DNA of 63,623 nucleotides, filler included. It is 6 parts of 6 records of this genome, joined end to end, with 100 filler letters (N's around TTAATTAATTAA, not from the genome) between each part and the next. Parts side by side here need not be neighbours in the genome. Positions count along the whole stretch, not along the records: positions 1 to 20,936 come from SRR31147125_2723; 5 more parts are not named here. One strand, given 5' to 3'. Below are positions 687-38,761 of the stretch, piece after piece. How positions within the stretch are numbered: position 1 is the first letter of the stretch; each line of letters starts with the position of its first letter. The position numbers were made by a program, and so were the translations under genes. The notes under the pieces were generated by a model. It made no database searches. It was given only the letters and a program-made list of their open reading frames with translations, and was not told the origin of the DNA.

Positions 687-713
687 TTATCGTGATTTGA
701 TAATAGATGTTGT
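687..713 (-). promoter_or_regulatory. sigma28/FliA-like promoter ACAAC-N14-CACGATAA
   Basis: The same bipartite motif and spacing recur at 11936, 16092, 16268 and 19761; this copy is 35 nt upstream of ATG 651. Confidence 0.65.
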
Positions 714-873
714 GTCTTAATATTTGGAAATATTAGACATTAAAGTGCGCGTACGCATTCAACAAGTAAGTGCATCACTTGTGTAAAATAAAATGCTGTT
801 CTAACTTGTAAGATTTAAACATTATCCGTACAGACGATTTTGGGGCATATAATGGAAATTGCAGCGCAAGAGG

Positions 874-955
874 CATTAATAACAGTATTGCTTTTTTGAC
901 TTATGAGCCGACAACGGAGGATCCATAAGTCAATAAAAAGAAATTGTTATTAATG
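874..955. repeat. Long imperfect inverted repeat (hairpin; REP/MITE-like element or structured RNA)
   Basis: CATTAATAACA...CTTTTTTGACTTATG pairs with CATAAGTCAATAAAAAG...TGTTATTAATG; the loop holds a CCG-ACAA-CGG mini-hairpin. Confidence 0.75.
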
Positions 956-1037
956 GTGAATAGCGGAGATTTTCTGCCCCGTCTGGTAGGATTATGTTTA
1001 AACCTTACAAGTTAGAACTCTCGAAGTGAATGAATAA

Positions 1038-1922
1038 TTAGTTTTTATTAAATTTCTTCATAATCTTGGCTGCTGCTTTCGTTCTTGCTAGACCGCCTCT
1101 TGCGGTTTCTTTGAATTTATCATCCATCTTGTCACCAATCTTCTTCATGGCGATTACAACTTCGTCAAAAGGGACTATTGTTTCAATTCCTGCAAGCGCC
1201 ATCTCTGCAGCTGCCATCGCATTTACTCCCGCTACAACATTGCGTTTAATGCATGGCACTTCAACATATCCGCCAATAGGATCGCAGACGAGGCCTAGAA
1301 GATTCTTAAGAGCAAATGAAGCAGCGCTTTCAATCTTATCAATGTCCATATCAAATAGTGAGACTAGTGCGCCAGCAAGCATTGCTGATGCTGATCCATT
1401 TTCAGCTTGGCAACCATGACGCGCTCCTGCTAGGGAAGCTCCGTTTGCAATAACTTCACCGATTGCTCCTGCTACAAATAGAGCATCAAGTAGTTTATCT
1501 CGTTTAATTTTATTGTATTTTGCAACGGTGATTAAAGTACCAGGTATTGCACCGCAAGCTCCGGCTGTTGGAGCCGTTACAACTCTTCCCATGCACGAAT
1601 TGAGTTCAGAGACCGCCATAATGCTATACAAAATTTCCGAAAACTCTGGACATAAAACGCCATTATCTTTACCCGCATTCTTTCTCAGTTTCCAGGCTCC
1701 AGCGTTTACCATTCCTGTGTTAGATATGTTCTTTTTCTTAAGACCTTTATTTATAGATTCTTCCATCGTACAGAGCATCTCTTCCATCTTTTCAGTAACT
1801 TCTTTAACAGAAATCTTTTTCTGCTGAGCTTCATATTGTTTTAAAAGTTCTGGCAGGGGAAGTTTTGTTTTCTTTCGAACTTTTTTAAGATCATCGAATG
1901 TTTTAAAAATAATTGCTTTCAA
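1038..1922 (-). CDS. sdaAA: L-serine dehydratase, Fe-S-dependent, alpha subunit
   Basis: Motifs VTAPTAGACG, SLAGARHGCQAE, LGLVCDPIGGYVEVPCIKRN and KETARGGLA. Confidence 0.95.
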   Translation of the reverse strand: MKAIIFKTFDDLKKVRKKTKLPLPELLKQYEAQQKKISVKEVTEKMEEMLCTMEESINKGLKKKNISNTGMVNAGAWKLRKNAGKDNGVLCPEFSEILYSIMAVSELNSCMGRVVTAPTAGACGAIPGTLITVAKYNKIKRDKLLDALFVAGAIGEVIANGASLAGARHGCQAENGSASAMLAGALVSLFDMDIDKIESAASFALKNLLGLVCDPIGGYVEVPCIKRNVVAGVNAMAAAEMALAGIETIVPFDEVVIAMKKIGDKMDDKFKETARGGLARTKAAAKIMKKFNKN

Positions 1923-1923
1923 G

Positions 1924-2586
1924 TTATTCCTCCAATTTCTCTATTCGAATAACTTTCTTTACATGTTTATTCTTTTTTAGAGTTTTGATTTCGCCAACAG
2001 GAAATTCACTATCTAGATAGAGTATGGCCAATGCTTCTTCTAGTACTGGATCTCTTCCGATTCTAATAAATGCTATGTTGATATTGAGATCTGCTATGAA
2101 TTTTCCAATATAGGCCATCATTCCAGGGACATCATCATAGGTCATCATTAGAACAGGGTATTTGCCACCAAATTTAACTGGGTAGCCATTAATATCTCTA
2201 ATTTCAACTTCGCCGCCGCCAACAGAAACGCCCATAACTGAAAAAGCTTTTTTACCTTTATAAAATGTTATTTTTGCGGTGTTTGGTTCAAGATCTTCGT
2301 CTTCAAGCCAGTTAAATTTGAACTTGATTTTTCGTCTCTTGGCAATATCAAATGAGTTCATAATATGCTCATCGTCAATTTTATAGCCAAGGATTCCACC
2401 TAAAATAGCGCGGTCTGTTCCGTGACCCTTTCCTGTTTGGGAAAAAGAGTTATATAGGTCAATAGCAACTCTGTCGAAGCTGTTGTTGTATATCTTTTGG
2501 GCAAAATGGCCGATCTTTGCAGCCCCTGCGGTGTGAGAACTTGAAGGGCCTATGATGATCGGACCAATGATATCTAATAATGACAT
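1924..2586 (-). CDS. sdaAB: L-serine dehydratase beta subunit with C-terminal ACT domain
   Basis: IIGPIIIGPSSSHTAGA, TGKGHGTDRA and GVSVGGG; DVPGMMA ACT-like segment; adjacent to sdaAA. Confidence 0.95.
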   Translation of the reverse strand: MSLLDIIGPIIIGPSSSHTAGAAKIGHFAQKIYNNSFDRVAIDLYNSFSQTGKGHGTDRAILGGILGYKIDDEHIMNSFDIAKRRKIKFKFNWLEDEDLEPNTAKITFYKGKKAFSVMGVSVGGGEVEIRDINGYPVKFGGKYPVLMMTYDDVPGMMAYIGKFIADLNINIAFIRIGRDPVLEEALAILYLDSEFPVGEIKTLKKNKHVKKVIRIEKLEE

Positions 2587-2724
2587 TGTTCCCCCGTTTA
2601 GGTGTTTCTCAAATAACTAGATGGGCACAATATATCACTAATTTCTATAATATAAAGTCCTAAAATCTTCGCACAGATAGGTTGAATTGTGATAAAATCC
2701 CTTTTTTCAAAAAAAGGAGTAAAT

Positions 2725-3432
2725 ATGGATGTGATACTTTTCTTGTCGGCACTTTTGGTCTCTTTTATTGTTGAACGTGTGGGTGCCGTGGCTTTTGAAT
2801 TAACGGGTCTTGATTGGCATGTCGCTAAATTTCAGGCTTTGTCATGTTTTACGGGGACTGGATTTACTACAAAAGAAGCCGAAGTGATCAGTTCTCATCC
2901 TCAAAGACGTAGCATTGCAGGCATTTTGATGATTCTGGGTCACGCTGGGTTAGTCACTATGGTTGCTACTTTTGCAAATACTCTAAGATCCAGTAGTGTT
3001 ATGCCAAAAATATTTGATTTTATCCCTGGTCACTTTGTTCCTTGGATAAATGTTTTAATAATAGTTGTCGTTATTTTCATCGGTATCAAAATCTTCAATA
3101 AGACAAAGCTTGCCACTTCAATGACAGAGTTCATTAAGCGACATATAATAAAGAAGAATCTGATAAAGCCAGTATCCTTTGAAGAGCTAATGTTTGCAGG
3201 GGATGGTTATGGTTTATGTCAAATTGAGATATGGCAGGATAGTCCTGTGTTGGATCAGCATATAGGCGACTTGGCTAAAAAGTATGATGAGATAAAGATC
3301 TTGATGGTCGGGAAAAAGGGGAGAAAGATGAAGCTCCCAAGCCCAGATACCAAGATTCAGGTTGGTGACAAGCTCTTATGTTTTGGAAAGATAGATCATG
3401 TCAAAAAGAAGTTGAATGTGGAGGGTATTTAA
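2725..3432 (+). CDS. Membrane protein with K+ channel-like pore segment and C-terminal TrkA-C (RCK_C) domain
   Basis: LTGLDWHVAKFQALSCFTGTGFTTKEAE and C-terminal PSPDTKIQVGDKLLCFG; AGGAG RBS before ATG 2725. Confidence 0.8.
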   Translation: MDVILFLSALLVSFIVERVGAVAFELTGLDWHVAKFQALSCFTGTGFTTKEAEVISSHPQRRSIAGILMILGHAGLVTMVATFANTLRSSSVMPKIFDFIPGHFVPWINVLIIVVVIFIGIKIFNKTKLATSMTEFIKRHIIKKNLIKPVSFEELMFAGDGYGLCQIEIWQDSPVLDQHIGDLAKKYDEIKILMVGKKGRKMKLPSPDTKIQVGDKLLCFGKIDHVKKKLNVEGI

Positions 3433-3482
3433 GTTGAATTAATACCAAATTTCATATATTTAATCGTTAAAAAGGGGGAGAT

Positions 3483-3848
3483 ATGGTCTTAACAGTAAAG
3501 GTTTTAGGAATCCTAATAATAGCTCTAGCAGTGATCTTAGTTGCATATCCAGATGCTATGAAGAAGATGTTAAATGCGTGTATGAATGCGACCTGTATCT
3601 ATGCAGCGGCAATTGTCAGGTTGATTATTGGAGCGTTTTTGCTGGTTGCTGCCGCTGAGTGTCATCATGTCTGGTTGATGATTGTTTTGGGTGTATTACT
3701 TCTGGCAACAGGCGTCTTGGCTTTTCTCTTAGGTGTCGAGAGAGTTAAAAAGGTTATTGGTACAATACTCGAAAAACAACCTATAGTTCATAGATTAATA
3801 GCTATTGTTCCTTTAATTGTTGGCGTGCTCCTTGTTTATGGCGCATAA
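3483..3848 (+). CDS. Small 4-TM membrane protein of unknown function
   Basis: GGGGAG RBS and four hydrophobic segments. Confidence 0.75.
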   Translation: MVLTVKVLGILIIALAVILVAYPDAMKKMLNACMNATCIYAAAIVRLIIGAFLLVAAAECHHVWLMIVLGVLLLATGVLAFLLGVERVKKVIGTILEKQPIVHRLIAIVPLIVGVLLVYGA

Positions 3849-3864
3849 AGAGGTCTCGTAATTC

Positions 3865-4887
3865 ATGAAATCTAGCCGAAGACACTTTCTATTTCATAAA
3901 GTCCCATTAATTATTCTATCAACCATTATTGTCTTAATATTGGCCATTATAGACGATGCAACTGGCCATGAAATTAGGGTCTCTCTTTTTTATCTAATTC
4001 CAATCATGCTGGTTGCATTTTTTGTGAGCCGATCTGTCGGTGTCTATCTATCTGTTTTGAGTGCTGCTGCGTGGTTTATGGTCGATCTAAGAATGGAGTT
4101 TGTTCAATATACACCAGTAGTTCATGTATGGAACACAATTGTCAGGCTGAGTTTCTTTGTTTTTATAACTTACGGAATATCGCTTCTTGTGACTGCCAAG
4201 AGGAAGCAGAGAGAGCTTTCAGATTTTATTATTCATGATTTAAAAACTCCACTTACAAATATGATGGTTGGTATGCAGGCCGTTAGCGACATTGTGAAAG
4301 ATACAAATAAGAGGGCTCTAAATTTATCGGAGATGACAGTTGCCTCCGGTAATAGAATGATTGGTATGATTCAATCTCTTACTGATCTGTCAAAAATGGA
4401 GAGTGGAAAGTACTCCATAAAGACTGAGGATGTTTCAGTTGGTGAGCTTGTTGATAGTTCTATCGATTCTGTTTCTCTCTGGGCTGAAAAGACTGAGATC
4501 AATATCAAGACAGAAATTGACGATAGTGAACTTCTCCTAAAAACGGATAAGATGCTTGTTTACCGGATTCTTACAAATCTCTTAAGTAATGCTCTCAAAG
4601 TTTCATCATCAGGGTCTTGGATCAAGTTAGTTGCAAATAAAAAGAGTGATCATTTAGTATCTTTTTGTGTGATTGATAATGGTCCAGGGATAGAAGAAAA
4701 ATGGCAGCATTCTGTGTTTGATAAATTTCATCAGCTTGAAGCTAGAAAGGGTGGCGTTGCTTTAGGGAGTGGCCTTGGACTTACTTTTTGTAAGTTAGGG
4801 GCAAAGGCTCTTGGTGGTGACATTTCTTTAGAAAGTGTTGTCGGAAAAGGGACAAATGTAAAAATGGAAATTCCGATTAAGTCATAG
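3865..4887 (+). CDS. Membrane-bound sensor histidine kinase (4-TM input, HisKA, HATPase)
   Basis: H-box IHDLKTPLT, N-box NLLSNALK, G1 DNGPGI and G2 GSGLGL. Confidence 0.92.
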   Translation: MKSSRRHFLFHKVPLIILSTIIVLILAIIDDATGHEIRVSLFYLIPIMLVAFFVSRSVGVYLSVLSAAAWFMVDLRMEFVQYTPVVHVWNTIVRLSFFVFITYGISLLVTAKRKQRELSDFIIHDLKTPLTNMMVGMQAVSDIVKDTNKRALNLSEMTVASGNRMIGMIQSLTDLSKMESGKYSIKTEDVSVGELVDSSIDSVSLWAEKTEINIKTEIDDSELLLKTDKMLVYRILTNLLSNALKVSSSGSWIKLVANKKSDHLVSFCVIDNGPGIEEKWQHSVFDKFHQLEARKGGVALGSGLGLTFCKLGAKALGGDISLESVVGKGTNVKMEIPIKS

Positions 4888-4896
4888 GGAATTATT

Positions 4897-6846
4897 ATGC
4901 CTGACAAAGGTGATAAAACTATAAATTCTAGTCAAACAGATTCTACTTCAGAGGATAAGATTGATGAATCCTCTGTCTTCATGTCTAGATATCAAATCAA
5001 TTCAATGGTTGGTCACGGTGGAGTGGGAAGAGTCTTTCTTGCCTTCGATAAAAATGTTGAGCGCAATGTTGCTGTTAAAGAGTTAGCCATTGATAAGGAA
5101 CACCCCAGACATAATGTAGCTTTAGCAAGATTGATCAAGGAAGCTAAAATTACTGGGAATCTCGAACACCCCAGTGTTGTACCAGTCTATGATCTTGGAG
5201 TTAAGGACGACGGTTCAACATTTTATGTTATGAAGTATGTTAAAGGTCTTACTCTCTTTGAAGTATTGCAAAAATGTCTTCTTGAAGATGAAATTGAAGC
5301 TTTTAATAAACGAATGAAGTTGTTGGATAACTTGATTGATGTTTGTGAGGCTATGTCTTATGCGCATTCAAAACATATAGTTCATCGTGATTTAAAGCCG
5401 GGTAATATTATTGTTGGTGAGTTTGGTGAAACTATTATTTTAGATTGGGGCATTGCTAAGAGAATCTCCGGAAAAGATGAAGAGTATGTCGATGTGCCGG
5501 GAGAGCCTGAAATTTCTCAGGAAGAAGGTTTTACTGAGACCGGAAAGCTTTTAGGGACACCTTCTTACATGCCTCCAGAGCAAGCAGATGATAGTTGGGG
5601 GACGATAGATCAGAGAAGTGATGTCTATTCCCTGGGCGTTGTTTTATTTATGATTCTTACCGGTGAGAAACCTTATGACAGATCAGCAGGACCTGTCTTA
5701 GAACAAGTTACTAGTGAAGAGCCTTCCCCATCACCTAAAGATAGATCTGGCCTTGTGCCGCCAGAACTTTCGGCAATTTGTGAAAAGGCAATGGCTAAGT
5801 CAAAGGATGATAGATTCAATAATGCTGGAGAATTGGCCGCTGAATTGAAAGCCTATCGCGATGGTCGGCTTGTTAGTGTCTATGGTTATTCAAAAAAAGA
5901 ACTCTTTAAAAGATTTGTTTCAAGAAACAAGCCTGCGATATTTGCAGTTTTTGCTGTTATTGTAGCTATTATTATTGGGGCGGGATTGGCGGTTGATTTT
6001 GGGCTGGAAACACGTAAAGCGAGACGAAAAGCTGAAAATGCTTTGGTTGATGTGACTGCACTTTCGCAAGGGGGAATAGAGTACTCTCTTAAAGCAAGAA
6101 GCGAAATTGAATCTTATTTTGGATTTTTGCAAGATGAAATGAGTAAGGCGGCAAAAGGTTTGAGTAAGGTAAGTTTTAAGAATCAGAAGATAATTCAAGA
6201 TTACTTAAAGAAACTCTACTCACAATTTCCAAATGTTCTAGCTTTTCAACTTGTTGAAAAACCAGGAAAGATAGTCTCTGTATATCCGGATTCTTCTATA
6301 GATGGTGTTGGTCTGGATATTTCTAATCAAACTCATGTTCAGGCTTTGTTTAAGGGAGAGCCGTACTACATCTCAAAAGTGTTTGAAACGGTTCAAGGAT
6401 TTCATGCAGTTGTTATGCAATATCCAGTCGTACGTGGCAAAAAGATTGTGGGTTCAGTCTCAGCGCTCATGAATATTGGTAAAATGATGTCTTCGATTTT
6501 GTCAGTTAATCCAGAAGAGACCGATTATAGAATTTGGATTATGCAAGATGATGGCTATATTCTCTACAGTGAGAATGAAAATAGAATTGGCGATCAGTTG
6601 TTTAGCGGGGAGATCAATGAACAATTTCCTGAGATACTAAAGTTTGGTAAAAGAATGCAGAGAGACGAGTGGGGCGTGGGAAGTTATTCTTTTGAAGATG
6701 AAGAGAATTATGACACGATCTATAAAGTAGCTGTTTGGGATACAATCGAAGCAATAAATAAAGTTGCTTGGAAAATTGTAGTAACACACACATACATGAT
6801 AGATAAGAAACGACACGTTTTGGAGGCAATATGGCCAGAAGAATAG
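4897..6846 (+). CDS. Hanks-type Ser/Thr protein kinase with TM helix and extracytoplasmic dCache-like domain
   Basis: GHGGVG, VAVK, HRDLKPGN, DWG and GTPSYMPPEQ; one TM helix; then Cache-like YYISKVFETVQG, IWIMQDDGYILY and WKIVV. Confidence 0.9.
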   Translation: MPDKGDKTINSSQTDSTSEDKIDESSVFMSRYQINSMVGHGGVGRVFLAFDKNVERNVAVKELAIDKEHPRHNVALARLIKEAKITGNLEHPSVVPVYDLGVKDDGSTFYVMKYVKGLTLFEVLQKCLLEDEIEAFNKRMKLLDNLIDVCEAMSYAHSKHIVHRDLKPGNIIVGEFGETIILDWGIAKRISGKDEEYVDVPGEPEISQEEGFTETGKLLGTPSYMPPEQADDSWGTIDQRSDVYSLGVVLFMILTGEKPYDRSAGPVLEQVTSEEPSPSPKDRSGLVPPELSAICEKAMAKSKDDRFNNAGELAAELKAYRDGRLVSVYGYSKKELFKRFVSRNKPAIFAVFAVIVAIIIGAGLAVDFGLETRKARRKAENALVDVTALSQGGIEYSLKARSEIESYFGFLQDEMSKAAKGLSKVSFKNQKIIQDYLKKLYSQFPNVLAFQLVEKPGKIVSVYPDSSIDGVGLDISNQTHVQALFKGEPYYISKVFETVQGFHAVVMQYPVVRGKKIVGSVSALMNIGKMMSSILSVNPEETDYRIWIMQDDGYILYSENENRIGDQLFSGEINEQFPEILKFGKRMQRDEWGVGSYSFEDEENYDTIYKVAVWDTIEAINKVAWKIVVTHTYMIDKKRHVLEAIWPEE

Positions 6847-7262
6847 GGTTTGTATCAATTTTTGTTATTGTTTTAACTTTGTTTGTTATATCGGCATGTA
6901 CTTCTTACGCGAAGCCAAAGGCAAAAAAAGATTATTGTAAGGTTGTTGCTTATGCTGGTGGGGTTTTTAAGGAAGATTTGGCAATGATTACAGAGGTAGA
7001 CTCTACACCAGAAGTCAGCAAACAGTGCCTTGATTTTGCAAATAGGTTAGATGTAAAAAATAGTGTTTGTAATTTTCAAGGCAATGGAACGATTGAGATG
7101 ATTCAAATTCGCAGTTATAGACCAGGTTCTCAAGAGGTAAAATCTCACTGTCACTATCAATGTCTAGGTTTTACAAATTCATCATGTGAGTCAAATTGTA
7201 ATGCCAGAAATGTTAGGATTCCAACAAAAATAGGCCAGATGGACTGCCCTCAGAATAACTAA
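6831..7262 (+). CDS. Cys-rich lipoprotein
   Basis: Signal peptide with lipobox ISAC and 8 further Cys; GGAGG RBS; overlaps the end of the kinase gene. Confidence 0.75.
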   Translation: MARRIGFVSIFVIVLTLFVISACTSYAKPKAKKDYCKVVAYAGGVFKEDLAMITEVDSTPEVSKQCLDFANRLDVKNSVCNFQGNGTIEMIQIRSYRPGSQEVKSHCHYQCLGFTNSSCESNCNARNVRIPTKIGQMDCPQNN

Positions 7263-7316
7263 TTGTTCTGAAAATAGCCCTCTAATGTGTGTGTAATAGC
7301 AAAATAGTGTTTGTAA

Positions 7317-8672
7317 TTAAGCCTTTTTAGCTAGGCCATATTTGTTTATCTTGTATTGAAGCGAAGTTCTTTTGATATCAAGCTCTCTAGCAGCTTTTGA
7401 CTGATTCCAGTTTGCTTCTTCCAAGGCCTGTCTGATGATTTCAGCTTCAATTGCGTCTATTTGAGCGCTTAAACCTTTTACATTATGCATAATCTCTTTG
7501 CTAAATGCAGGAATTCTATTTCCCAGTGAATAAGAGAAGTGTTTCGATTCAAGTTTGTCGTCCTCAGCCATAATTATTGCTTGGACAACCGAATTTTCTA
7601 GTTCTCTCACGTTGCCTGGCCAGTTGTATGATTTGAGTATTCCAATGACTTCTGGTGTGATAGAAACTTTTTTATGAAATTCAGGCGAGTGTTTTTTTAT
7701 CAATTCATCAACAAGGTCTGGCATGTCTTCTGTTCGTTCTCTGAGCGGTGGTGTGTTGATGGTAAAGCTCTTAAGGCGATATAAAAGATCTTCGTTGAAA
7801 GAGTGTTTCATTAGAGAGGATGTGTCTTTATTGGTTGCAGCAATCAATCGGACGTTTTTTTGAATTTTATGTGATCCTCGTAGCCTTTGGAAATCCTTTT
7901 CCTGTAAGAATCTCAGAAGTTTTAGCTGAACGTTGGGGTCTAGGTCTGCTATTTCATCTAAAAAAAGAGTTCCGCTATTTGCTAAATCTATTTTACCTTG
8001 TCTTGTTGTTAGTGAGCCATTTTGAGATTCACTTTCTGATCCGAATAGAATTTCCTCAAGACTATCTCCTGATAATGCTATGCAATTTACGCTCACAAAA
8101 GGCTCTTCTTTTCTGGGCCCTCTATTATGTATCTCACGCGCTATATGTTCCTTGCCCGTTCCACTTTCTCCAGTGATTAGAACAGGAAAGTGAGTCTCTG
8201 CAACCTTGTCTATTAGCTTATCAACATCCTTCATTGTCGAGCTTTTTGTGATAATTGGTCCAAATTTAGTTTGTAGAGTCTCTTTCAAAAGCTGATTTTC
8301 AAGGTTTAGTCTCTGTTTTTCAATAGCCTTGTTGATCTTGATTTCAATTTCATCAATTGAGAAAGGCTTTAAAATATAATCAAAAGCCCCATGGTGAAGA
8401 GCTTCAACGGCATTTTCCACTGTTCCATAAGCTGTAATCATAATGATGTAGGTCAGTGGGGAGATAGCTTTGACCTGTCTTAAGACTTCCATTCCATCAG
8501 CCTTAGGGAGCCTTAAGTCAGATAATACGATATCAAAATAGTCATTTTCAATTTTATTAATTGCGCTTTCGCCGTCATATGCGCATTCGACATTGAAATT
8601 TCTTTTAGTTAGTGTGCGAGTCAAAGATGAACATAGTTCTTGGTTATCGTCTGCAATTAGTATTTTAACCAC
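7317..8672 (-). CDS. NtrC-family response regulator (REC-AAA+-Fis HTH) lacking GAFTGA
   Basis: REC with phospho-Asp (VLSDLRLP), GESGTGKE, LFLDE, WPGNVREL and NQSKAARELDI; the GAFTGA position reads ESQNGS. Confidence 0.92.
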   Translation of the reverse strand: MVKILIADDNQELCSSLTRTLTKRNFNVECAYDGESAINKIENDYFDIVLSDLRLPKADGMEVLRQVKAISPLTYIIMITAYGTVENAVEALHHGAFDYILKPFSIDEIEIKINKAIEKQRLNLENQLLKETLQTKFGPIITKSSTMKDVDKLIDKVAETHFPVLITGESGTGKEHIAREIHNRGPRKEEPFVSVNCIALSGDSLEEILFGSESESQNGSLTTRQGKIDLANSGTLFLDEIADLDPNVQLKLLRFLQEKDFQRLRGSHKIQKNVRLIAATNKDTSSLMKHSFNEDLLYRLKSFTINTPPLRERTEDMPDLVDELIKKHSPEFHKKVSITPEVIGILKSYNWPGNVRELENSVVQAIIMAEDDKLESKHFSYSLGNRIPAFSKEIMHNVKGLSAQIDAIEAEIIRQALEEANWNQSKAARELDIKRTSLQYKINKYGLAKKA

Positions 8673-8686
8673 GTTGCCCCCGAATT

Positions 8687-10246: not shown

Positions 10247-10308
10247 ACATGATGGTTTTTAGCATATTAGACAGAATATTGCATTATGTAATATTGGGCT
10301 TACATTAT

Positions 10309-10899: not shown

Positions 10900-10914
10900 T
10901 TCCCCCTGGATGAT

Positions 10915-11811
10915 CTATTTGGTAATTAATTTATTCAATTGTCTGTCAGCCGTTGATCTATATCCGATAATAGTAAATGGCTGAGAGTTTAACAACTCTT
11001 TATATTTTTTCTCTTTTGATTTTTTAATGTACTCGATGTTGAAGATCTTTTTGTTGTATTCTGCAAATTTTTCAAGAAGTGTAAGTCGATAATCACGATC
11101 GGCTGCCGTTGTATTAAAGAAGAGGCTTTCAACACCGACAGCGTTAATAGTCTTTAGAAATTTTGCTGTAGCTTCTAGTGATGCATCATTAATTATTCCT
11201 AATCCGTTTTGAGGGCAGATAATAAAAGACTTTCCTGCCTTCTTTCTTGTGTAGTCTGCAATTTTGACAAGAAGTTTTACCATTTGATCAGCAGCTCCTT
11301 TTACACCCATCTTCTTGTCGTGACCCCAATAGTAGTATGCGTCGATAATATCGAGGTATACTCCATCAAAGCCTGCTGCTATTATCTGATCTAAGTAAGG
11401 CTTTAATACATAGTCAAACCATCCTTCTTCCCAATATTTAATTTTATAATTACCTTTCCATTCCGGATTTTCAGGTCCAATGAATTTTGGTTTCTTTTTG
11501 TTCCAGGCTGGATTCCAGTAGAACCTATAGTCTTCAGCTTCACCAATGGAAAGATAGGCGAGAACAATTTTGCCTTTCTTCTTTATCTTTTGAATCTCTG
11601 TTTTGGTGAAAGCATTAGGGTTTGTTCCATCCTTTGAATAATCTATCACTAAAAGATCAAAAGGGGATTTAATTAGCGTATTAAGGTTGATATTTTGGAG
11701 TTGGTAGCCCCAATTGTTGACACGATTCAAAGATTTTGCTGAGGCACAAAATGTAATTAATAGGGTTGCTACTATAATAGATAGTAGTGAGATCTGTTTG
11801 TATATTTTCAT
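10915..11811 (-). CDS. Secreted TM1410/MJ1477-like glycoside hydrolase (GH114/PelA-like alpha-1,4-galactosaminidase fold)
   Basis: WGYQLQ, AYLSIGEAEDYRFYW, GFDGVYLDIID, PQNG and GVES; signal peptide. Confidence 0.85.
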   Translation of the reverse strand: MKIYKQISLLSIIVATLLITFCASAKSLNRVNNWGYQLQNINLNTLIKSPFDLLVIDYSKDGTNPNAFTKTEIQKIKKKGKIVLAYLSIGEAEDYRFYWNPAWNKKKPKFIGPENPEWKGNYKIKYWEEGWFDYVLKPYLDQIIAAGFDGVYLDIIDAYYYWGHDKKMGVKGAADQMVKLLVKIADYTRKKAGKSFIICPQNGLGIINDASLEATAKFLKTINAVGVESLFFNTTAADRDYRLTLLEKFAEYNKKIFNIEYIKKSKEKKYKELLNSQPFTIIGYRSTADRQLNKLITK

Positions 11812-11935
11812 GGATTTCCCCCAAAAAAGTTGAAGAATAATAGCATATTATGCCGAAATATTGCCAGATTTTAGTCTTTTTTGGCAAAAAATGCCATCAA
11901 ACCCACGTGGATAGTGAATATTTGTGAAAAAACAC

Positions 11936-11963
11936 GCAACTAATTAATTAGAGAGGGCGATAG
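11936..11963 (+). promoter_or_regulatory. sigma28-like promoter GCAAC-N15-GGCGATAG
   Basis: Match to the recurring contig A motif, upstream of 12058. Confidence 0.5.
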
Positions 11964-12057
11964 TTAAGGGAATTAAATGAAGTTAAAAAAAACTTGCGTT
12001 TATTTGATATAAACACTAGATGGAGAGCTTCGTTTTTTAAAACAAAGGAGAGGGAAT

Positions 12058-14016
12058 ATGAAGTTAAGAGTATTACTATTTGCAGTATTGATTGCATTTC
12101 TTGCTGCACCAATTTATCCGACGGTGATGGGTTGCGGAGGAAGTGGAAGTGCGGCTCCAGTAGATCCGGCAGCTAGTGAAACCCCAGATGCCGATTTCGA
12201 TGGTGACGGTATTACTAATGCCGATGATCCTGACGATGATGGCGATGGTGTCTTGGATGTTGACGATGTCTTTCCATTTGATGCTGATGAATCATCAGAT
12301 TTTGATGGCGATGGTATCGGCGACAACGAAGATACAGACGATGATAATGATGGTGTAGAAGATGATGATGATCTTGATAGTCAGGATGCTGATCTTGGAA
12401 GTCCTTTAGATGCTGTATGGGTCTCTCAGACAGAAGGTGCTCCAGGCGCTGAAGGTACAATTGATGATCCTGTAGATACAATTAATGAAGCTTTGACAAT
12501 TGCTGCGGCCGAAGGCCTTGATGTCTATGTTGTTGAAGGAACCTATGCAGAAGATGTTGAACTGACCGATGGAATTTCACTCTTTGGTGGTTTTAGCTTG
12601 CTAACAGACGAAACAAGAACCAGAGATGCTGAGAATAATGTTACAGTTATTGAAGGTGATGCAACAGGCCTCTTTAGTTTTGAGTTTGAACATGAAGGCC
12701 CAATGGATATCCCTTTTACAGTCTTGATCGATTCTTCAGATTCAATTTTAGATGGATTCACCGTTCAAGAAGATGATTCAGCTGGAAATATTATGGTCTA
12801 TAACTCTTCAGCAACTGTTAGAAATTGTGTAGTTAATGGTGTTGATTCGGGTCCTAGAGATATGGCGATGCAGATTGCCATAATGGTTGATGGTGACTCA
12901 ACAAAGGATCAGTCTGTAACAATTAGCAATAATATAGTTCATATGCCAGATTTAGATGGTGCACCTGATAGTAAAAATATTGGTGTTATGGCCGTTCCAT
13001 CTAACTTAGGTGATGGGTTGCTTGAGGTGAATGTATTAGATAATACAATTACCAGCACAGGTGGATCTGAGATGGCCATTGCTATTTATGCAGCTGATAA
13101 TGATTCGGATCCAACTTCTGATGAGTCAGATGGTAAACTCGATATTGATTTGGTTGCCAAGAGAAACGAAATTAATATGAGTGGCGAAACTGATTATGCT
13201 GTTGCCATCGGCGGCGGTGTTTTGATGGAAGCACATTTTCTTCCACCAAGTGAAGAAATGAATAATATTAATAGTATGAATATTTCAGAAAATATTATCA
13301 GTTTTGATTTCCCAACAGCTGCAACAGATATTGCGATAGGTGTTGAGGCGGGTCTAGTTAGAGAAAGTTCAGATATTTATAATAATGTTATTTCAGGAAA
13401 TAGTGAAGAAGCTATGTTGGTTTCTTTTCTAGCCATTGTTGCTCCCACAAATTACTATAATAACACCGTGAGCTTTGAATCTGTAACTGGCGGTGCTGTC
13501 GGGTTCTATTTGCTTATGGCAGATAATGGGCCTGCTACAAATTATAGCTCTTCACTTGGAAACATTAATAACAATATTATTGATTTAACCGTTACTGGTG
13601 GAGCTTGTGATGCAGTCGTTGGTGGTATCGAAATGTTGACTGAGGGAAGTGATACTGAAGAGACTCGTTCACGTTTAAGTCCGAAAGAGTTCTATAATAA
13701 TGACATCATTCTTAATGCATCATGTGGTGACATGGCTACATATGTTGATTATCTAGCTGGTGGCGGAATGAATTTTATTGCTACAGTTGAGGATCTAAAT
13801 GCAAAGACAGGTTTTGATGCAACTGATCCAATGTTGGTCGGTGGTAATATTTCAGAAGATCCAATGTTTACAAATGCTGCTACTGGAGACTATACACTTC
13901 AATCAGGTTCACCATGTGTTGATACTGGTTATGACTTGGGTGAAGATTGGGTTGATATCTTAGGTGTTTCAAGACCGCAAGGCGATGCCTTTGATATGGG
14001 TGCTTACGAACAGTAA
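12058..14016 (+). CDS. Acidic surface lipoprotein: thrombospondin type-3 Ca-binding repeats, beta-helix region and choice-of-anchor-Q-like C-terminus
   Basis: Lipobox VMGC; DFDGDG..DxDDDGDG repeats; GTIDDPVDTINEA..EGTY; DYTLQSGSPCVDTG...RPQGDAFDMGAYE. Confidence 0.85.
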   Translation: MKLRVLLFAVLIAFLAAPIYPTVMGCGGSGSAAPVDPAASETPDADFDGDGITNADDPDDDGDGVLDVDDVFPFDADESSDFDGDGIGDNEDTDDDNDGVEDDDDLDSQDADLGSPLDAVWVSQTEGAPGAEGTIDDPVDTINEALTIAAAEGLDVYVVEGTYAEDVELTDGISLFGGFSLLTDETRTRDAENNVTVIEGDATGLFSFEFEHEGPMDIPFTVLIDSSDSILDGFTVQEDDSAGNIMVYNSSATVRNCVVNGVDSGPRDMAMQIAIMVDGDSTKDQSVTISNNIVHMPDLDGAPDSKNIGVMAVPSNLGDGLLEVNVLDNTITSTGGSEMAIAIYAADNDSDPTSDESDGKLDIDLVAKRNEINMSGETDYAVAIGGGVLMEAHFLPPSEEMNNINSMNISENIISFDFPTAATDIAIGVEAGLVRESSDIYNNVISGNSEEAMLVSFLAIVAPTNYYNNTVSFESVTGGAVGFYLLMADNGPATNYSSSLGNINNNIIDLTVTGGACDAVVGGIEMLTEGSDTEETRSRLSPKEFYNNDIILNASCGDMATYVDYLAGGGMNFIATVEDLNAKTGFDATDPMLVGGNISEDPMFTNAATGDYTLQSGSPCVDTGYDLGEDWVDILGVSRPQGDAFDMGAYEQ

Positions 14017-14042
14017 GATTTAAAAAGAAAAATGAATTTCAG

Positions 14043-14076
14043 AAAGGGATGTATCGCTAGATGCATCCCTTTTTTT
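14043..14076 (+). terminator. Rho-independent terminator
   Basis: AAAGGGATGTATC-GCTA-GATGCATCCCTTT followed by a T-run, after stop 14016. Confidence 0.85.
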
Positions 14077-14079
14077 ATC

Positions 14080-14200
14080 GTTCTCGACTGCGCTCGAACA
14101 ATATTATTGTGTCCCTAACGTATAAAAGTCACAGTTTATTTCCCCTCCCTTTTCACCACCGATAATATCATTTATATGTAGGTGGATCAGCCTCTGGCTG
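14080..14200. repeat. Short REP-like palindromic motifs
   Basis: GTTCTCGACTGCGCTCGAAC (14080-14099) and CAGCCTCTGGCTG (14188-14200) between convergent genes; single copies here. Confidence 0.35.
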
Positions 14201-14247
14201 AGAGGGTGCGCAAGCCCCTAGAAAGTGTATTTCGTTTTAATATAAAT

Positions 14248-16082
14248 TTACTCTGATTTGTAACGTACTTGAAAGAGTTCTTCAATCTGATGAAATTGAT
14301 CAGGGGATATCTCTTTTTGTTGAGCAGTTCTTTTAGAATATGTCTCGTCTGCATACTTGCAGGATGTTTCGTAGTATGTAGAGTAATACCATTCAGCGTT
14401 AACCCACCTAAAAGCGCTAACGACAAATGAGAGGTCTTTACAGTCAGGGACCTCATTGTTATAGGGGATAAAAAAGTTTAGTCGTTTAGAGATATCGTAT
14501 TTAGAAAGAGTTTCAGTAATATTGAATGCAAATCTCTTTTCTTCGTAATTGGCACCTTGTTTAAAGCCCGATATTAAAGGTGTTGAGCAGTGTGGTTTTT
14601 CCGTTTCCTTACACAGACTTGCTGGCTTGAATGAGGAAAATTTACTTATAGGCTCCTCAAGAACTTCACAGGCTTTGGCTGTTAGCTGATTAGGGGTTTT
14701 ACTTCTTTTACCAAAAACTAAATTTACAAGTCCAACCAGCATGGATGAAAAGTTAAAAGAGGTGAGTTTTGATACTTTGTTATCTTTAATTAAGTAAAAC
14801 ATGAGGCCATATTGATGATCCCAATTAATTGCTATCGATTTACCTTGAGAGTTTGATAATTCTGAGTAGAACTTAAAAGAGTCGGTTAAAAGATTAATGG
14901 TAGTTCTGTAACCATTTGCTTTGGAGCTAACCCTTAATCCACCGCTACCAAGAGAAAGCTTTAGACTAGAATCAGCGTTCTTTATTAGAGGTCGCAAGTA
15001 GTTTGAAATGCTCTCTGAGTTCGTCGAGAATCCTATTTTTGTGTTTTCATGAGTTAATTCAATGGAGAGTTCGTTAAAATCTATTGGGTTCTTTGTAACC
15101 TTTAATGCTTTCTTGCTTAAGAGTGTATGGCCTTTTACTTTTTCACGAGTAAGTGGAGAACATTCTTCTTTATTATCTCTTAAACAGTCCTTGTTGACTA
15201 GTGCTACTGCTTCTGCATAATCCTCGATGCTTGAATTAATGGTTCCGACATATTCATTGTTTGTTTCGAGAAGTAATCCTGGAATTGAATCCTCGGTATA
15301 CGCAATATTGTATACGTGGCCAGGAGTATGAAATCTTTCGATTGTAAATAAAGGATTTCCATTAGCATCTTGAATGCTAGAGAGGATCTGTTCGGCTATG
15401 TATTGGAAGCCTCCGCAGTCAATCCTGATTCTTCCGTCAGAAGTGGATGATAGAGATTCGAGGGAGCCCCATCCCTGAGATAGTCATCATCCAAATCTAC
15501 AGTTGGGTGAAAGAAAGCATTTTCAAGATAATCTCTTAGATCAATGGCCAGTCTTTCTAAATCAGCTTCCGAATTAATGTTCCCATTGTATTTATTTTGA
15601 AACCATTGAATGATTCCAGGAATATCATGAAGTGGTTTGCCAAATTTTAGCATGGCTTTAAATTTTAAAAAAGATGTCATCATGTGTTGTTTCTTGGATG
15701 AATCATCAAAAAATTCTGTAAAGAAAATAGAGGATTTGGGGCCTTGCTCTGGTTCTAAAAAGAGACTTCTGAATTCATCATTGTTAAAGAAAATCCATTC
15801 ATTCTCTGGAACTGCTTTTTTGTAGATATCGCTGAAGTGGCCTAAGTCAAAATCTACATATCCGTCATCGTCTCTATCTTGAACAAGGATTTCGTCATAC
15901 AGGATATCTGAAGAAATCCCGAATGTCTCAGATATCTGTATTGTAGCCTTATCGATTGCTTCTCTTATACCACCTGGAAACCTGCTTGCGTGGTATTTGA
16001 ACCCAGCTTCAAGAATGTTTGGATAGAAACCGTGTTCAAGAGGCTTGTATTCCTCAAGATTTTCATAAATAGCACTGATCAT
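14248..16082 (-). CDS. Orphan ~611-aa protein with putative transglutaminase/papain-like Cys-His domain, split by a 1-nt frameshift near 15420-15483
   Basis: The 14248 frame stays open upstream to 15483 and reads IDCGGFQYIAEQIL...TPGHVYNIAY. It overlaps ORF 15396-16082, and adding one base joins them. EF-hand-like DRDDDGYVDF in the N-terminal part. Confidence 0.65.
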
Positions 16083-16091
16083 TGCAAGATT

Positions 16092-16119
16092 GCTTCGGCT
16101 ATGAATTCAGAAAAGTTGT
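16092..16119 (-). promoter_or_regulatory. sigma28-like promoter ACAAC-N15-GCCGAAGC (near-leaderless transcript)
   Basis: Shares CAACTTTTCTGA and GCCGAA with the divergent site at 16268; ends 9 nt before ATG 16082. Confidence 0.65.
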
Positions 16120-16267
16120 TAACTTTTTCATAGATATATTTGAAAGTCTTGAAAGGCGGGTAACTATACGATATTGTTGTGTTATTGTGTTCGGCTTTGT
16201 GTGCAATTTCATTTTATCATATGTTCTGTTTTGAACACATAAAAGTAGAATAAGTAGAGAAAAAAAG

Positions 16268-16294
16268 GCAACTTTTCTGACGCAGTGCCGAATC
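16268..16294 (+). promoter_or_regulatory. sigma28-like promoter GCAAC-N14-GCCGAATC
   Basis: Motif lies 41 nt upstream of ATG 16336 (GAGG RBS). Confidence 0.7.
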
Positions 16295-16335
16295 ACTAGT
16301 AAGACAGTGCATATCTGTATGCAGAGGATTAATTT

Positions 16336-17622
16336 ATGGCATTTGATGTTATGAATAAAATAGTATCGTCTTCGAGCCAAACCGGAGTTAGCAAGGCTAC
16401 TTCTGGCGGGCAAGTCAGTGCCTCTTCAACAGTTACAAAAGCTTGCAAGGCCAAAGAAACGTCAGCAGAATCCTTTCACAGTGTATGTGAGCAGACTTGC
16501 TTTGTTGAGAATTTCTTTTTTGATGATTATATCAGAATGATGACTGATTGGTCCTATTTTTCTGCAGCCGGGGGGTCAACATTTGATGGTACAGATGTAG
16601 GGTCTCTACCAGACGATGAAGAGATCACAGAAAAAGTTAAAACTGAAAATAAATCTAGTTCAGGTTCGTCAGAGTTGTCACCTAAATCAAGATTATCGAA
16701 GCCTGTAAAAAGTCTGAATGCTGAAAACATCTCTGAGAATAGATTAAAAAAAGAACAGACCCTAGAACCTAAAACAGAGATTTCAAAAAGTGAACGAGGT
16801 TTGGTAAAGAGTTTTCTTGAGGGATTGAAAAAGCCTTTCTCAATGAAGGGGACTGCTGGAGTAGGTAAACAGCTTCAAGGAAGTAGTTCAGAAGTTCAAG
16901 ATAATAGTCCAAATAAGAAAGATCAGTTGAAAAGAGTAGCGTCTGCCATTCGTAATTTGTCTGGACAAGGTAAGATAAAAGAACAAGCCAGTGTGATAGC
17001 TGCGAAATCCAATTCAAAACTTAAGGGAAAGAAAAAGGGAAGAATTTGGAAGTCTTTAGTTTCAAAGAATGTAACAACTTTAAAGCAGAAACCAAATCTT
17101 GGTGCAAAAATTGATCAGCCTAGAAGCCAAGTGCTGAATCGTGATGTTGCTAGAATGCTGCATCATGCAAAGAGCTGTATGCAAAATGGTTCATCACTTC
17201 TCACATCAAATCTAGATGCCTTAAGTGATGGTGCGCTGTTGCTACAGGCAAAATTGGCGCAGCAGATTCTTAAAAAAGGTCGAAGTTCAGCAAATAAAGC
17301 TTTTATAACTAATAGCGGAAAAGTTGCAGTATCAAATCTAAAGGCTACAATGAGTCTGCAGGTGGCAGATAAGATTTCAAGACTCCTCCTACCTGAAAAT
17401 GAAGGTGAGATGGTTCGTTTTTTGCGACTTCAGAATGTTTTGTCACAAGAGCTCAAATCAGCAGATGTTGCAGCTCTTTATAGTTACTACTATGGTTCTC
17501 AGGAAAGAAATGGAGATGAAAGAGGCGGTTTTGCTGATCAGTCTTCAGAAGAAGATTTTGCCATAAAAGATTATGGCGAATATATGGTGAATGGTGCTTT
17601 TCAATTATACTATTTAGCGTAA
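16336..17622 (+). CDS. Orphan Ser/Lys-rich, probably largely disordered protein
   Basis: 428-aa ORF with RBS; no signal peptide; S/T-rich N-terminus. Confidence 0.8.
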   Translation: MAFDVMNKIVSSSSQTGVSKATSGGQVSASSTVTKACKAKETSAESFHSVCEQTCFVENFFFDDYIRMMTDWSYFSAAGGSTFDGTDVGSLPDDEEITEKVKTENKSSSGSSELSPKSRLSKPVKSLNAENISENRLKKEQTLEPKTEISKSERGLVKSFLEGLKKPFSMKGTAGVGKQLQGSSSEVQDNSPNKKDQLKRVASAIRNLSGQGKIKEQASVIAAKSNSKLKGKKKGRIWKSLVSKNVTTLKQKPNLGAKIDQPRSQVLNRDVARMLHHAKSCMQNGSSLLTSNLDALSDGALLLQAKLAQQILKKGRSSANKAFITNSGKVAVSNLKATMSLQVADKISRLLLPENEGEMVRFLRLQNVLSQELKSADVAALYSYYYGSQERNGDERGGFADQSSEEDFAIKDYGEYMVNGAFQLYYLA

Positions 17623-17688
17623 TATATCTCTTCACATCTTCCTGAAATATTGTTAGATGGTCCTCCACTGTAATGGGGGAGATAAATT

Positions 17689-19143
17689 ATGTTAGAATTT
17701 ATATCAAATATTCTTTTTAAGAATCGTTTAGCTGATCTTGATGGTAAGCCTGGAGTCTCTGAAGGTGATGCCGAAATATTAATCGAAAAATTAGAATTGC
17801 CGCCATCTGACTCAGAAGAAGTTATCGCTTTTTGTGATGAAGCTGATAGATCTTTGTATATTCCCACTTCTAAAATAAGTAGTTTTGTTGCAAATCTTGA
17901 TATTCCCGATAAACAAGTCAGTCTATATGGTATGTTTCGAAATTTGTTCGGAGCTGATATTGATTGGAGCCACTACTTTCCAGGTCTAGAGTCAAAGAGA
18001 CATCAGGTCTTAGAGTCGGTATATAAACGTTTGTATGGACCTGATGGTCAACCAAGTGATGGGGCGAGATTCACCGATTTCAATCGATGGATAAACTCTA
18101 AAAACTTTAATCCAGAACTCTATTCAGTGGGTTTAAATTGTTTTTTGTTTAGAAGTGCTGGTTCGATTGTTTGTGGCGAAGCGACAAGTGATTTTAGATC
18201 TATTCAGAGAAATATCGAAGGTAAAATGACAACAATTCATCATCGAATGCTCATGTTTGATACTATTTTTGACGAAAAGTGTCTCAAGGGTAGTGGTTGT
18301 CAATTTGATTTGGCTAAATTCGATTCTCTCTATACTTTGGCTGTTTTTGTTCCCCGAGTTAGAGAGTATTTATCTGATAGGTTTGAGTTTCTGTTTTCTG
18401 CTATAAATACTCTAGGCGTGTTTTCTGGTTTTTCGCTTGCTGCCTTTGCTTTTTCAGCACTCCTTTCTAATAGATTCTATGATCAGGTTGTAGATTTTAT
18501 TGGGACCCATGAGTGGGCACATATTCAAACCGATCGAGTTGAAAGTAATGTGATGTCGCTCTCCGGCTATCTCAAATATAAAGATGATCAGGGTGAGAAG
18601 GGTGATGTAGTTCGTAGAATGTTTGAGATGCTTTGGGTCGCAAAAGAGACGATGCCAGATCTTCTTGCAATAAATCAGTCAGCAATTTATCCACTACTGT
18701 ATTCCTTGATCAGGTTTGCTGGCTCTAGTGTTTCTTCCTTGGAGCCACCGGCAAAATTTGCGTCTATGATGATGACGGGTGTTTCCCCATTTACGTTTGC
18801 TGGTTTCGGAGAAAGGTCGAGCGAGTTGTCTGCCTTCTTTTCAAATTATAGGGATCAATTAGTTAAAGTTATTTTGGATCAGACTGCTCAGTGGATAACT
18901 GAAAATGGCATGGAAAAGAAAATAGGAGAAGATATCGAAGGCTTTTGTATGGTTAATAGTGGTGGGCAGAAAGTAAATATTTGCTCAGACCAACTAATTA
19001 AAGACGAGATCTTTTTTACAAGGCTTGCTGAATATTATTGGAGTGATATTTTTCCAAGTGACCCAAGTGTGTTGAAAGTGTTTGTTGATCAACAGTGGCA
19101 GGAGTATATGTCAATTCAGCACGAGCTCAGAAAACCTCAGTAG
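17689..19143 (+). CDS. Orphan protein with zincin HEXXH motif (putative metallopeptidase)
   Basis: GTHEWAHIQ followed by KETMPDLLA (E..xD third-ligand-like helix); GGGGAG RBS. Confidence 0.7.
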   Translation: MLEFISNILFKNRLADLDGKPGVSEGDAEILIEKLELPPSDSEEVIAFCDEADRSLYIPTSKISSFVANLDIPDKQVSLYGMFRNLFGADIDWSHYFPGLESKRHQVLESVYKRLYGPDGQPSDGARFTDFNRWINSKNFNPELYSVGLNCFLFRSAGSIVCGEATSDFRSIQRNIEGKMTTIHHRMLMFDTIFDEKCLKGSGCQFDLAKFDSLYTLAVFVPRVREYLSDRFEFLFSAINTLGVFSGFSLAAFAFSALLSNRFYDQVVDFIGTHEWAHIQTDRVESNVMSLSGYLKYKDDQGEKGDVVRRMFEMLWVAKETMPDLLAINQSAIYPLLYSLIRFAGSSVSSLEPPAKFASMMMTGVSPFTFAGFGERSSELSAFFSNYRDQLVKVILDQTAQWITENGMEKKIGEDIEGFCMVNSGGQKVNICSDQLIKDEIFFTRLAEYYWSDIFPSDPSVLKVFVDQQWQEYMSIQHELRKPQ

Positions 19144-19242
19144 AATCGTGATTTGAAATTGCTTCGTAGAATCAGTTGGACTTTGTTGTAACTCATTTGT
19201 ATAATAGCTGTAAATAGTTGCTTCGAAAATCTCGGGGGAGAT

Positions 19243-19620
19243 ATGTCAAATAAGTATAAGATTCTTGTTGCTGATGACGACGCTACGTTTGTTGAGCTTT
19301 TGTCAGAACGCCTTAAACACGAAGGTTATGATACGGTTGCTGCATTCGAAGGTGTTATGGTCATTGAGACTGCTCTTAGTGAAAAGCCAGATCTGATTCT
19401 CCTCGATATAAAGATGCCTTATGGAAAAGGTGACACAGTCCTTAGAAGCCTTCAATACGCATATGAGACAAAAGATATTCCGGTCATTATTGTTACAGGT
19501 TTCAGAGATGATGAAATTAAAGCTAATGCAATGGAGGGTGGAGCTAAGGCATACTTCGAAAAACCAATAGACAACACAAAACTCTTCACGAAGATTAAAG
19601 AATTATTACCTAAAAAATAA
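19243..19620 (+). CDS. Single-domain response regulator
   Basis: ILVADDD, PDLILLDIKMP, VTG and FEKP. Confidence 0.93.
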   Translation: MSNKYKILVADDDATFVELLSERLKHEGYDTVAAFEGVMVIETALSEKPDLILLDIKMPYGKGDTVLRSLQYAYETKDIPVIIVTGFRDDEIKANAMEGGAKAYFEKPIDNTKLFTKIKELLPKK

Positions 19621-19661
19621 ACACTACATTAAATTCCAATTATTTTCATGTATGAGTGAAT

Positions 19662-19691
19662 AGGCTTCGACCTTGTGGAGAAGCTTTTTTT
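19662..19691 (+). terminator. Probable terminator
   Basis: GCTTC...GAAGC stem followed by T7, downstream of the response regulator. Confidence 0.5.
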
Positions 19692-19760
19692 GATTATTAT
19701 ATTGATCTAAGAGTTTCTTTATACAAACAAACCTTGAACACACTATTTACTCACGGATAA

Positions 19761-19787
19761 GCAACTTTATTAAGATCCCATCGATTA
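19761..19787 (+). promoter_or_regulatory. sigma28-like promoter GCAAC-N14-ATCGATTA
   Basis: Motif lies 19 nt upstream of ATG 19807. Confidence 0.65.
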
Positions 19788-20936: not shown

Positions 20937-21036
20937 NNNNNNNNNNNNNNNNNNNNNNNNNNNNNNNNNNNNNNNNNNNNTTAATTAATTAANNNNNNNN
21001 NNNNNNNNNNNNNNNNNNNNNNNNNNNNNNNNNNNN
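20937..21036. other. Artificial contig spacer
   Basis: N44-TTAATTAATTAA-N44, with stops in all six frames. Confidence 0.99.
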
Positions 21037-27777: not shown

Positions 27778-27877
27778 NNNNNNNNNNNNNNNNNNNNNNN
27801 NNNNNNNNNNNNNNNNNNNNNTTAATTAATTAANNNNNNNNNNNNNNNNNNNNNNNNNNNNNNNNNNNNNNNNNNNN
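27778..27877. other. Artificial contig spacer
   Basis: N44-TTAATTAATTAA-N44. Confidence 0.99.
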
Positions 27878-38661: not shown

Positions 38662-38761
38662 NNNNNNNNNNNNNNNNNNNNNNNNNNNNNNNNNNNNNNN
38701 NNNNNTTAATTAATTAANNNNNNNNNNNNNNNNNNNNNNNNNNNNNNNNNNNNNNNNNNNN
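38662..38761. other. Artificial contig spacer
   Basis: N44-TTAATTAATTAA-N44. Confidence 0.99.

Follow-up and report, generated by a model that had tools for sequence, protein, structure and literature searches.

Five promoter-like sites precede the family-less transcription units and one lipoprotein gene on an uncultured bacterium's contig and are probably read by one alternative sigma factor

Introduction

How can genes without any known protein family be interpreted when they come from an uncultured lineage? We address this question for contig A, the first part (positions 1–20936, GC content 0.374) of a window of 63,623 bases in which six contigs are joined by N spacers (20937–21036, 27778–27877, 38662–38761, 45214–45313 and 55886–55985). 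Among the 19 proteins of contig A, 6 have no Pfam family, and the same 6 have no NCBIfam, PHROGs or PADLOC family. We find that five sites with a common two-box motif precede all transcription units of these genes and, in addition, the gene of one lipoprotein. These sites are probably promoters that are read by one alternative sigma factor. If this is confirmed, the motif assigns orphan genes that could not otherwise be interpreted to a single co-regulated set of an uncultured lineage. Furthermore, it would then provide a search pattern for the remaining members of the set, which would be useful for annotation. The GC content of the six contigs in the window ranges from ~0.30 to 0.56. Because it is so unequal, the contigs are unlikely to stem from one organism, and thus only contig A is relevant to the motif.

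Five sites share a two-box motif upstream of start codons

The original prediction, which was made by reading the sequence, described five bipartite motifs upstream of genes on contig A. All five read exactly so in the sequence, with the same coordinates and on the same strands (sites 1–5 in Table 1). Each of them lies on the coding strand of its downstream gene, 9–94 nucleotides (nt) ahead of the start codon. When aligned at their core, the sites read aRCAAC-T-T-T ... (G-C)CGA-W, and the distance from AAC to CGA is 16 nt in three sites and 17 nt in two. Conservation extends into the flanks of both boxes, with R before CAAC in 5/5 sites, T after CAAC in 4/5 and W after CGA in 5/5. Overall, the -35 box is more conserved than the -10 box.

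A motif match was found neither before sdhBA, the TrkA-C channel gene, the histidine kinase (HK)/serine-threonine kinase (STK) unit or the PAS-HK/sigma-54 regulator unit, nor before GH114, the single-domain response regulator gene or the last lipoprotein gene. The earlier observation that the motif is not seen before housekeeping or signalling genes thus holds for these seven annotated units on contig A.

The motif is in excess over chance and linked to family-less genes

As the motif had been chosen after the fact, we enumerated all dyads blindly. Every combination of a 4-mer, a gap of 9–21 and a 3-mer was scored over the upstream regions by its Poisson tail under a first-order model, and the best score in dinucleotide-preserving shuffles served as null. 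Over 14 upstream regions (2067 nt), CAAC-N16/17-CGA tops all dyads (p=6.4e-8; 0/400 shuffles as good). One of these regions, the false 'upstream' of 14997, was removed after a correction of the gene model that is described below. Over the 13 true upstream regions (1867 nt), the same dyad comes out on top; it occurs in 5 regions compared to 0.074 expected (p=1.7e-8), and none of 1000 shuffles attains its score, the best shuffle reaching 3.8e-8.

Across the whole of contig A, the core dyad has 10 matches compared to 2.63 expected. Five of these are located upstream of genes and five inside genes, the latter being about the chance level. In the remainder of the window, which comprises five contigs, we counted 8 matches compared to 6.1 expected, which again corresponds to chance. 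When the pattern is relaxed until it covers all five sites (RCAAC-N14/15-NNCGAW), contig A contains 6 matches over its two strands, including one that is not upstream of a gene (Table 1). A match to the strict pattern at 27607 on contig B was rejected as chance; it falls within a LacI-type coding frame.

The motif is also tied to a particular class of genes. It precedes 4/4 transcription units of family-less genes, compared to 1/8 annotated units (Fisher p=0.010), and the sole annotated unit with the motif is that of the 652-amino-acid (aa) lipoprotein. We thus conclude that the five sites are not due to chance and that their excess is statistically solid.

Table 1. Motif sites on contig A and the genes behind them. 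Positions refer to the window.
Feature	Position	Strand	Remarks
Site 1, ACAAC-N14-CACGATAA	713-687	-	ends 35 nt upstream of ATG at 651
Site 2, GCAAC-N15-GGCGATAG	11936-11963	+	ends 94 nt upstream of ATG at 12058
Site 3, ACAAC-N15-GCCGAAGC	16119-16092	-	ends 9 nt upstream of ATG at 16082
Site 4, GCAAC-N14-GCCGAATC	16268-16294	+	ends 41 nt upstream of ATG at 16336
Site 5, GCAAC-N14-ATCGATTA	19761-19787	+	ends 19 nt upstream of ATG at 19807
Sixth match to the loose pattern	18829-18805	-	antisense within the 484-aa gene; taken as chance
Family-less gene	1..651	-	217 codons visible, continues past the contig end; no N-terminal hydrophobic segment
Lipoprotein gene, 652 aa	12058..14016	+	signal peptide and Cys, acidic Asp-rich repeats, choice-of-anchor Q C-terminus
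Family-less gene, ~610 codons	14248..16082	-	split in the window: frames 16082-15396 and 15483-14248
Family-less gene, 428 aa	16336..17622	+	Ser/Thr-rich N-terminus
Family-less gene, 484 aa	17689..19143	+	66 nt downstream of the 428-aa gene; without a site of its own
Family-less gene, 246 aa	19807..20547	+	behind site 5

The sites are probably promoters of one alternative sigma factor

Two short boxes that are spaced as in a promoter, occur solely on the coding strand near start codons and precede a coherent subset of genes make an alternative-sigma promoter likely. We therefore favour, as the probable explanation, that the five sites are promoters for one alternative factor of the sigma-70 family. 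Region 4 of this factor would read RCAAC(TTT) at -35, and its region 2 would read (GC)CGA(W) at -10, 16–17 nt beyond the -35 core. Once the factor is active, five units would be switched on together: the gene starting at 651, the 652-aa lipoprotein gene, the split gene 16082–14248, the operon 16336–19143 and the gene starting at 19807. The products of such a regulon would be lineage-specific proteins, one of them a putative zinc metallopeptidase. Genes that seem to lack the motif are accounted for, because 14998–15395 turns out to be coding sequence and the 66-nt gap upstream of the 484-aa gene would be located within an operon.

Several points weigh against this interpretation. No sigma-70 region 2 or region 4 domain was found among the 19 proteins of contig A. 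The motif is based on only five sites from one 21-kb contig, the classes 'family-less' and 'annotated' were drawn after the data had been seen, and shuffles are an imperfect null for genuine intergenic DNA. Furthermore, sites 3 and 4, which point away from each other as an inverted pair ~150 nt apart in the divergent region 16083–16335, have twelve identical letters, CAACTTTTCTGA, and this similarity would also suit a DNA-binding regulator. The conserved words would then be the site of an activator or repressor that binds a half-site similar to CAACTTTTCTGA, and not the contacts of a sigma factor. We regard such a regulator as very unlikely, as the 12-nt word is not present in sites 1, 2 and 5, and as the part that all five sites have in common consists of two short boxes at promoter spacing that occur on the coding strand only and down to 9 nt from a start codon. 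That a degenerate seven-letter pattern was picked post hoc from mere coincidences is hardly credible. It is true that contig A should contain about 2.6 core matches by chance, that five matches lie inside genes and that the earlier reader defined the pattern after having seen the sites; however, the search over all dyads, with no shuffle scoring as high, and the additional conservation around both cores argue against a coincidence.

Comparison to the promoters of known sigma factor classes

When we compare the proposed promoters of an alternative sigma factor to published ones, their shape agrees with two classes, the extracytoplasmic function (ECF) factors and sigma-28 (FliA/SigD/WhiG). Among the alternative sigma factors, the ECF class is by far the largest, and a -35 box that is better conserved than the -10 box, as observed here, is more typical of their promoters. 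Excerpts of the literature give the ECF promoter rule as 'AAc and cGT' (PMC6061681). In our sites, AAC at -35 and CG at -10 are both invariant (5/5), and they are separated by 16 nt in three sites and by 17 nt in two, an arrangement typical of ECF promoters; however, the -10 core ends in A in 5/5 sites and not in the usual T. This odd A is covered by Caulobacter sigma-F, which reads GTAACC-N16-CGAA (excerpt of PMC3511200); CGAA is also found in sites 3 and 4. The word GCAAC itself is contained in the sigma-E promoters of Streptomyces coelicolor, given as GGCAAC or CGCAAC ... CGTCTT in the part of PMC6767563 used here. In addition, there is a lipoprotein among the targets. The motif might thus be read by an ECF (group 4) factor that a signal from the envelope or the environment frees from its anti-sigma factor, with the genes forming its stress or niche regulon. 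We consider this complete scenario rather doubtful. There is no ECF sigma/anti-sigma pair among the 19 proteins of contig A, and no motif-preceded operon of such a pair was seen there. Moreover, an ECF regulon typically comprises few genes, many of them for envelope proteins, and five sites in 21 kb that mostly precede proteins without signal peptides would be unusual for it.

The original prediction read the motif as a variant sigma-28 promoter. The consensus of sigma-28 class-3 promoters in Escherichia coli is TAAAGTTT-N11-GCCGATAA in the available part of PMC2859248, and an excerpt of PMC12784957 also describes a consensus for this class. Read as octamers, sites 4 and 5 are GCAACTTT-N11-GCCGAATC and GCAACTTT-N11-ATCGATTA; the general form GCAACTTT-N11/12-GCCGA shadows the sigma-28 consensus. 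The octamers are separated by N11, the spacing of sigma-28, in three sites and by N12 in two. At -10, CGA is found in 5/5 sites, GCCGA in 2/5 and CGAT in 3/5, so that T follows CGA in only three sites, and the matches to the octamer GCCGATAA amount to 6, 6, 5, 5 and 5 of 8 letters. A run of T after the -35 core is a further similarity. The -35 box itself does not conform: in 5/5 sites, RCAAC(TTT) departs from TAAAGTTT at positions 1, 2 and 5, with GCAAC in place of TAAAG, in line with the earlier remark that the CAAC word is not the canonical one. Such changes matter in E. coli. At the aer promoter, single changes at -35 positions 1, 3 or 5 lower the activity 4- to 10-fold, and T-to-C at position 1 reduces it about tenfold, from 223 to 23 units (PMC2859248, same excerpt). 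Reading our sites would thus need a variant sigma region 4. Furthermore, sigma-28 promoters usually have a -10 box that is better conserved than the -35 box, which is the reverse of what we observe, and there are no flagellar, chemotaxis or type III genes on contig A.

A precedent for a wide sigma-28 regulon is the FliA factor of Bdellovibrio bacteriovorus, for which an excerpt of PMC3627812 reports TTAAG-N16-CCGATA at 92/140 mapped promoters of the attack phase, among which are promoters of protease genes and of genes for uncharacterised proteins. The likeness to our sites consists in the form xxAAx ... CGA at the same spacing, in a position upstream of many genes for proteases and for uncharacterised proteins that are not flagellar. 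In contrast, the Bdellovibrio promoters were mapped by their 5' ends and the FliA gene is known, whereas the sites on contig A are known from sequence alone, and the letters around AA are different. Following this precedent, a variant sigma-28 of the FliA/WhiG family with an altered -35 preference could co-express signal-less orphan proteins, which would leave the cell through a flagellar or type III system or serve in predation or host interaction. From a density of five sites in 21 kb, one would expect a large regulon. A crude hydropathy scan found an N-terminal hydrophobic segment in none of the orphans and, together with a lipobox cysteine, in the lipoprotein, in agreement with the original prediction that the orphans lack signal peptides, the lipoprotein excepted. 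Two orphans have N-termini rich in Ser, Thr and Asn. The Fed and CiaI proteins of Campylobacter are examples of proteins that depend on sigma-28. However, family searches of the 19 proteins found no type III or flagellar export genes on contig A, export of the orphans is putative, and of two orphans said to carry protease motifs, one was recovered (HEWAH in the gene 17689–19143) and the second was not found. We therefore consider this scenario unlikely, and an effector regulon is a guess.

For the class of the proposed alternative sigma factor, the comparison of the promoter words suggests a slight and tentative lean towards an ECF-type (group 4) factor; a FliA-type (group 3) factor is possible and somewhat less favoured, and the remainder falls to other readings. 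The number of five sites in 21 kb is a better fit for a global, phase-specific factor than for a small ECF regulon. Of the original prediction, the shared element with fixed spacing thus stands, and it likely is an alternative-sigma promoter; the label sigma-28 is not established over ECF. Regulons of alternative sigma factors with AAC/CGx or TAAA/CGA motifs are well known, and in this respect the signal is of an ordinary kind. It would be remarkable only if secreted effectors were under the control of a re-targeted flagellar sigma factor, which is a guess. In that case, an uncultured deep-branching bacterium would have re-tuned a FliA-derived sigma factor to the -35 word GCAACTTT and would use it as a global switch for many lineage-specific proteins, including a new family of HExxH peptidases. 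We regard this as improbable; if true, it would be a parallel to the attack-phase programme of Bdellovibrio, and the motif would offer a genome-wide handle on proteins for the interaction with host or prey.

Genes behind the sites and a corrected gene model

Site 3 is located upstream of a gene that was listed as two separate genes, 15396–16082 ('228-aa') and 14248–14997 ('249-aa'). This separation is not borne out. The '249-aa' gene belongs to a frame of 411 codons that stays open as far back as 15483, and there is no ATG, GTG or TTG in the 162 codons ahead of the listed TTG. The two frames overlap by 88 nt (15396–15483) in the -1 frame. Furthermore, an independent Logan assembly of the same run has 20,938 bases and agrees with contig A at all but two places. 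At each of these, a homopolymer run is longer by one base in the Logan contig; the first such run (15467–15470, with the extra base after 15466) falls inside the overlap of the frames. The two 'genes' are thus one gene of ~610 codons that is split in the window by a one-base homopolymer difference, and the motif-free 398-nt 'gap' (14998–15395) is coding sequence. The second homopolymer difference (3469–3473) affects a G-run in the ribosome-binding site of a gene for a 121-aa membrane protein.

The start codon behind site 3 (ATG at 16082) has no Shine-Dalgarno sequence in the interval 16083–16091. As the site is so close to this codon, transcription would yield an mRNA with little or no leader if site 3 is a promoter. 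On the other side of the divergent region, the 484-aa gene has a strong ribosome-binding site, which together with the short distance to its upstream neighbour suggests that the 428-aa and 484-aa genes probably form one operon. No homologue of the 428-aa protein was found in a word-indexed search. An AlphaFold2 (AF2) single-sequence model of the 411-codon frame is unusable (pLDDT 32.8), and Atlas leads for the orphans, to transglutaminase-like and C71 clusters, reach only 0.79. A comparison of the orphans on contig A with each other revealed zero paralogy.

Downstream of site 2, the 652-aa lipoprotein gene is followed by a terminator-like hairpin (14041–14074). Between site 2 and the ATG of this gene, there is an upstream open reading frame of 11 codons (11977–12012, + strand), MKLKKTCVYLI, whose first three residues are those of the lipoprotein. 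Upstream of site 5 and after the response-regulator gene, a stem (~19664–19684) followed by a T run was read by eye.

A putative zinc peptidase among the motif-linked genes

The HEWAH motif of the 484-aa protein is located at residues 274–278. The word-indexed search with this protein was empty, Pfam and NCBIfam gave no sequence match, and no relatives were found in two metagenome contig scans. Among 1.84 billion representatives, we found five remote relatives, of which the best aligns over the full length with 30% identity (E=9.2e-26); two of them are on record as JGI proteins. HE..H is present in 4/5 alignment rows that reach this position, and the other row has HAVSH.

An AF2 model built on the alignment of the relatives has a pLDDT of 77.8 and a pTM of 0.75. 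Foldseek found no match to this model at E≤0.001. In a VIA search, the top match was dipeptidyl-peptidase III (DPP III) with Z 9.6 and a root mean square deviation of 4.8 over 256 residues. For helical models, a Z below ~13 counts as weak, and this also applies to another three DPP III entries (Z 5.9–6.6). DPP III enzymes (M49) are zinc peptidases, and they resemble the 484-aa protein in being its best structural match and in having an HExxH-type motif. They differ in that no match is found at the level of sequence families and in that DPP III carries HExxGH, not the HExxH that is present here. The third zinc ligand of the 484-aa protein was not identified. From the conserved motif and the predicted structure, it is plausible that the 484-aa protein is a zinc peptidase, and with its five remote relatives it defines a small family with a conserved HExxH and a DPP III-like predicted fold.

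Genomic context and further elements on contig A

The motif-linked genes match their neighbours on contig A in GC content and in GC content at third codon positions (GC3); there is thus no sign of a recent import. The closest matches of other genes are distant. In a scan of species-representative genomes, the serine dehydratase alpha protein has a top identity of 44%, to Bacillota. For the sigma-54 response regulator, the word-indexed search found metagenome proteins with 56% identity, an NCBI protein that bears just the label 'bacterium' (53%) and Nitrospirae (47%); the ESM Atlas yielded no informative match for this regulator. Among sequencing runs, the stretch was recovered from the probable source DNA run only, and from no RNA run. 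Weak NCBIfam hints among the proteins of contig A are OMP_myx_plus and the DVU0259 family. Neither Rfam families nor tRNAs were found on the contig.

A scan for the sigma-70 consensus revealed no enrichment on the contig (16 matches compared to 21.1 expected). A promoter of the sigma-70 type, TGGACT-17-TATAAT, precedes the gene of the single-domain response regulator, the neighbour of site 5, and sigma-70 promoters of the ordinary kind are thus in use in this organism as well.

At 798–1018, a ~220-nt hairpin is located between site 1 and the serine dehydratase genes; it is formed by nested inverted repeats whose arms measure 39 nt (87% identity) and 32 nt (81%). It has a folding energy of -84.6 kcal/mol (z=-10.9; 0/200 shuffles as good) and no Rfam match. 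This hairpin could be an element similar to miniature inverted-repeat transposable elements (MITE-like), a large terminator or a structured RNA.

In the divergent region between GH114 and the lipoprotein gene, a palindrome TGGCA-N6-TGCCA (~11882–11896) is a possible regulator site. We rejected a sigma-54 promoter at the same position by eye, as GG and GC are 10 nt apart and not 12. An exact direct repeat of 18 nt (7057–7074 and 7301–7318, 244 nt apart) has one copy within the gene of a Cys-rich 143-aa protein and one at the end of the sigma-54 regulator gene.

Lastly, two pieces of ~25 nt (14080–14106 and 19659–19683) are located at or just past terminator-like elements that consist of a hairpin and a T run. 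Both pieces co-occur on two other contigs of the run, which have sequencing depths of 19.5 and 21, compared to 19.7 for contig A. This suggests that the pieces are a short dispersed repeat of this genome.

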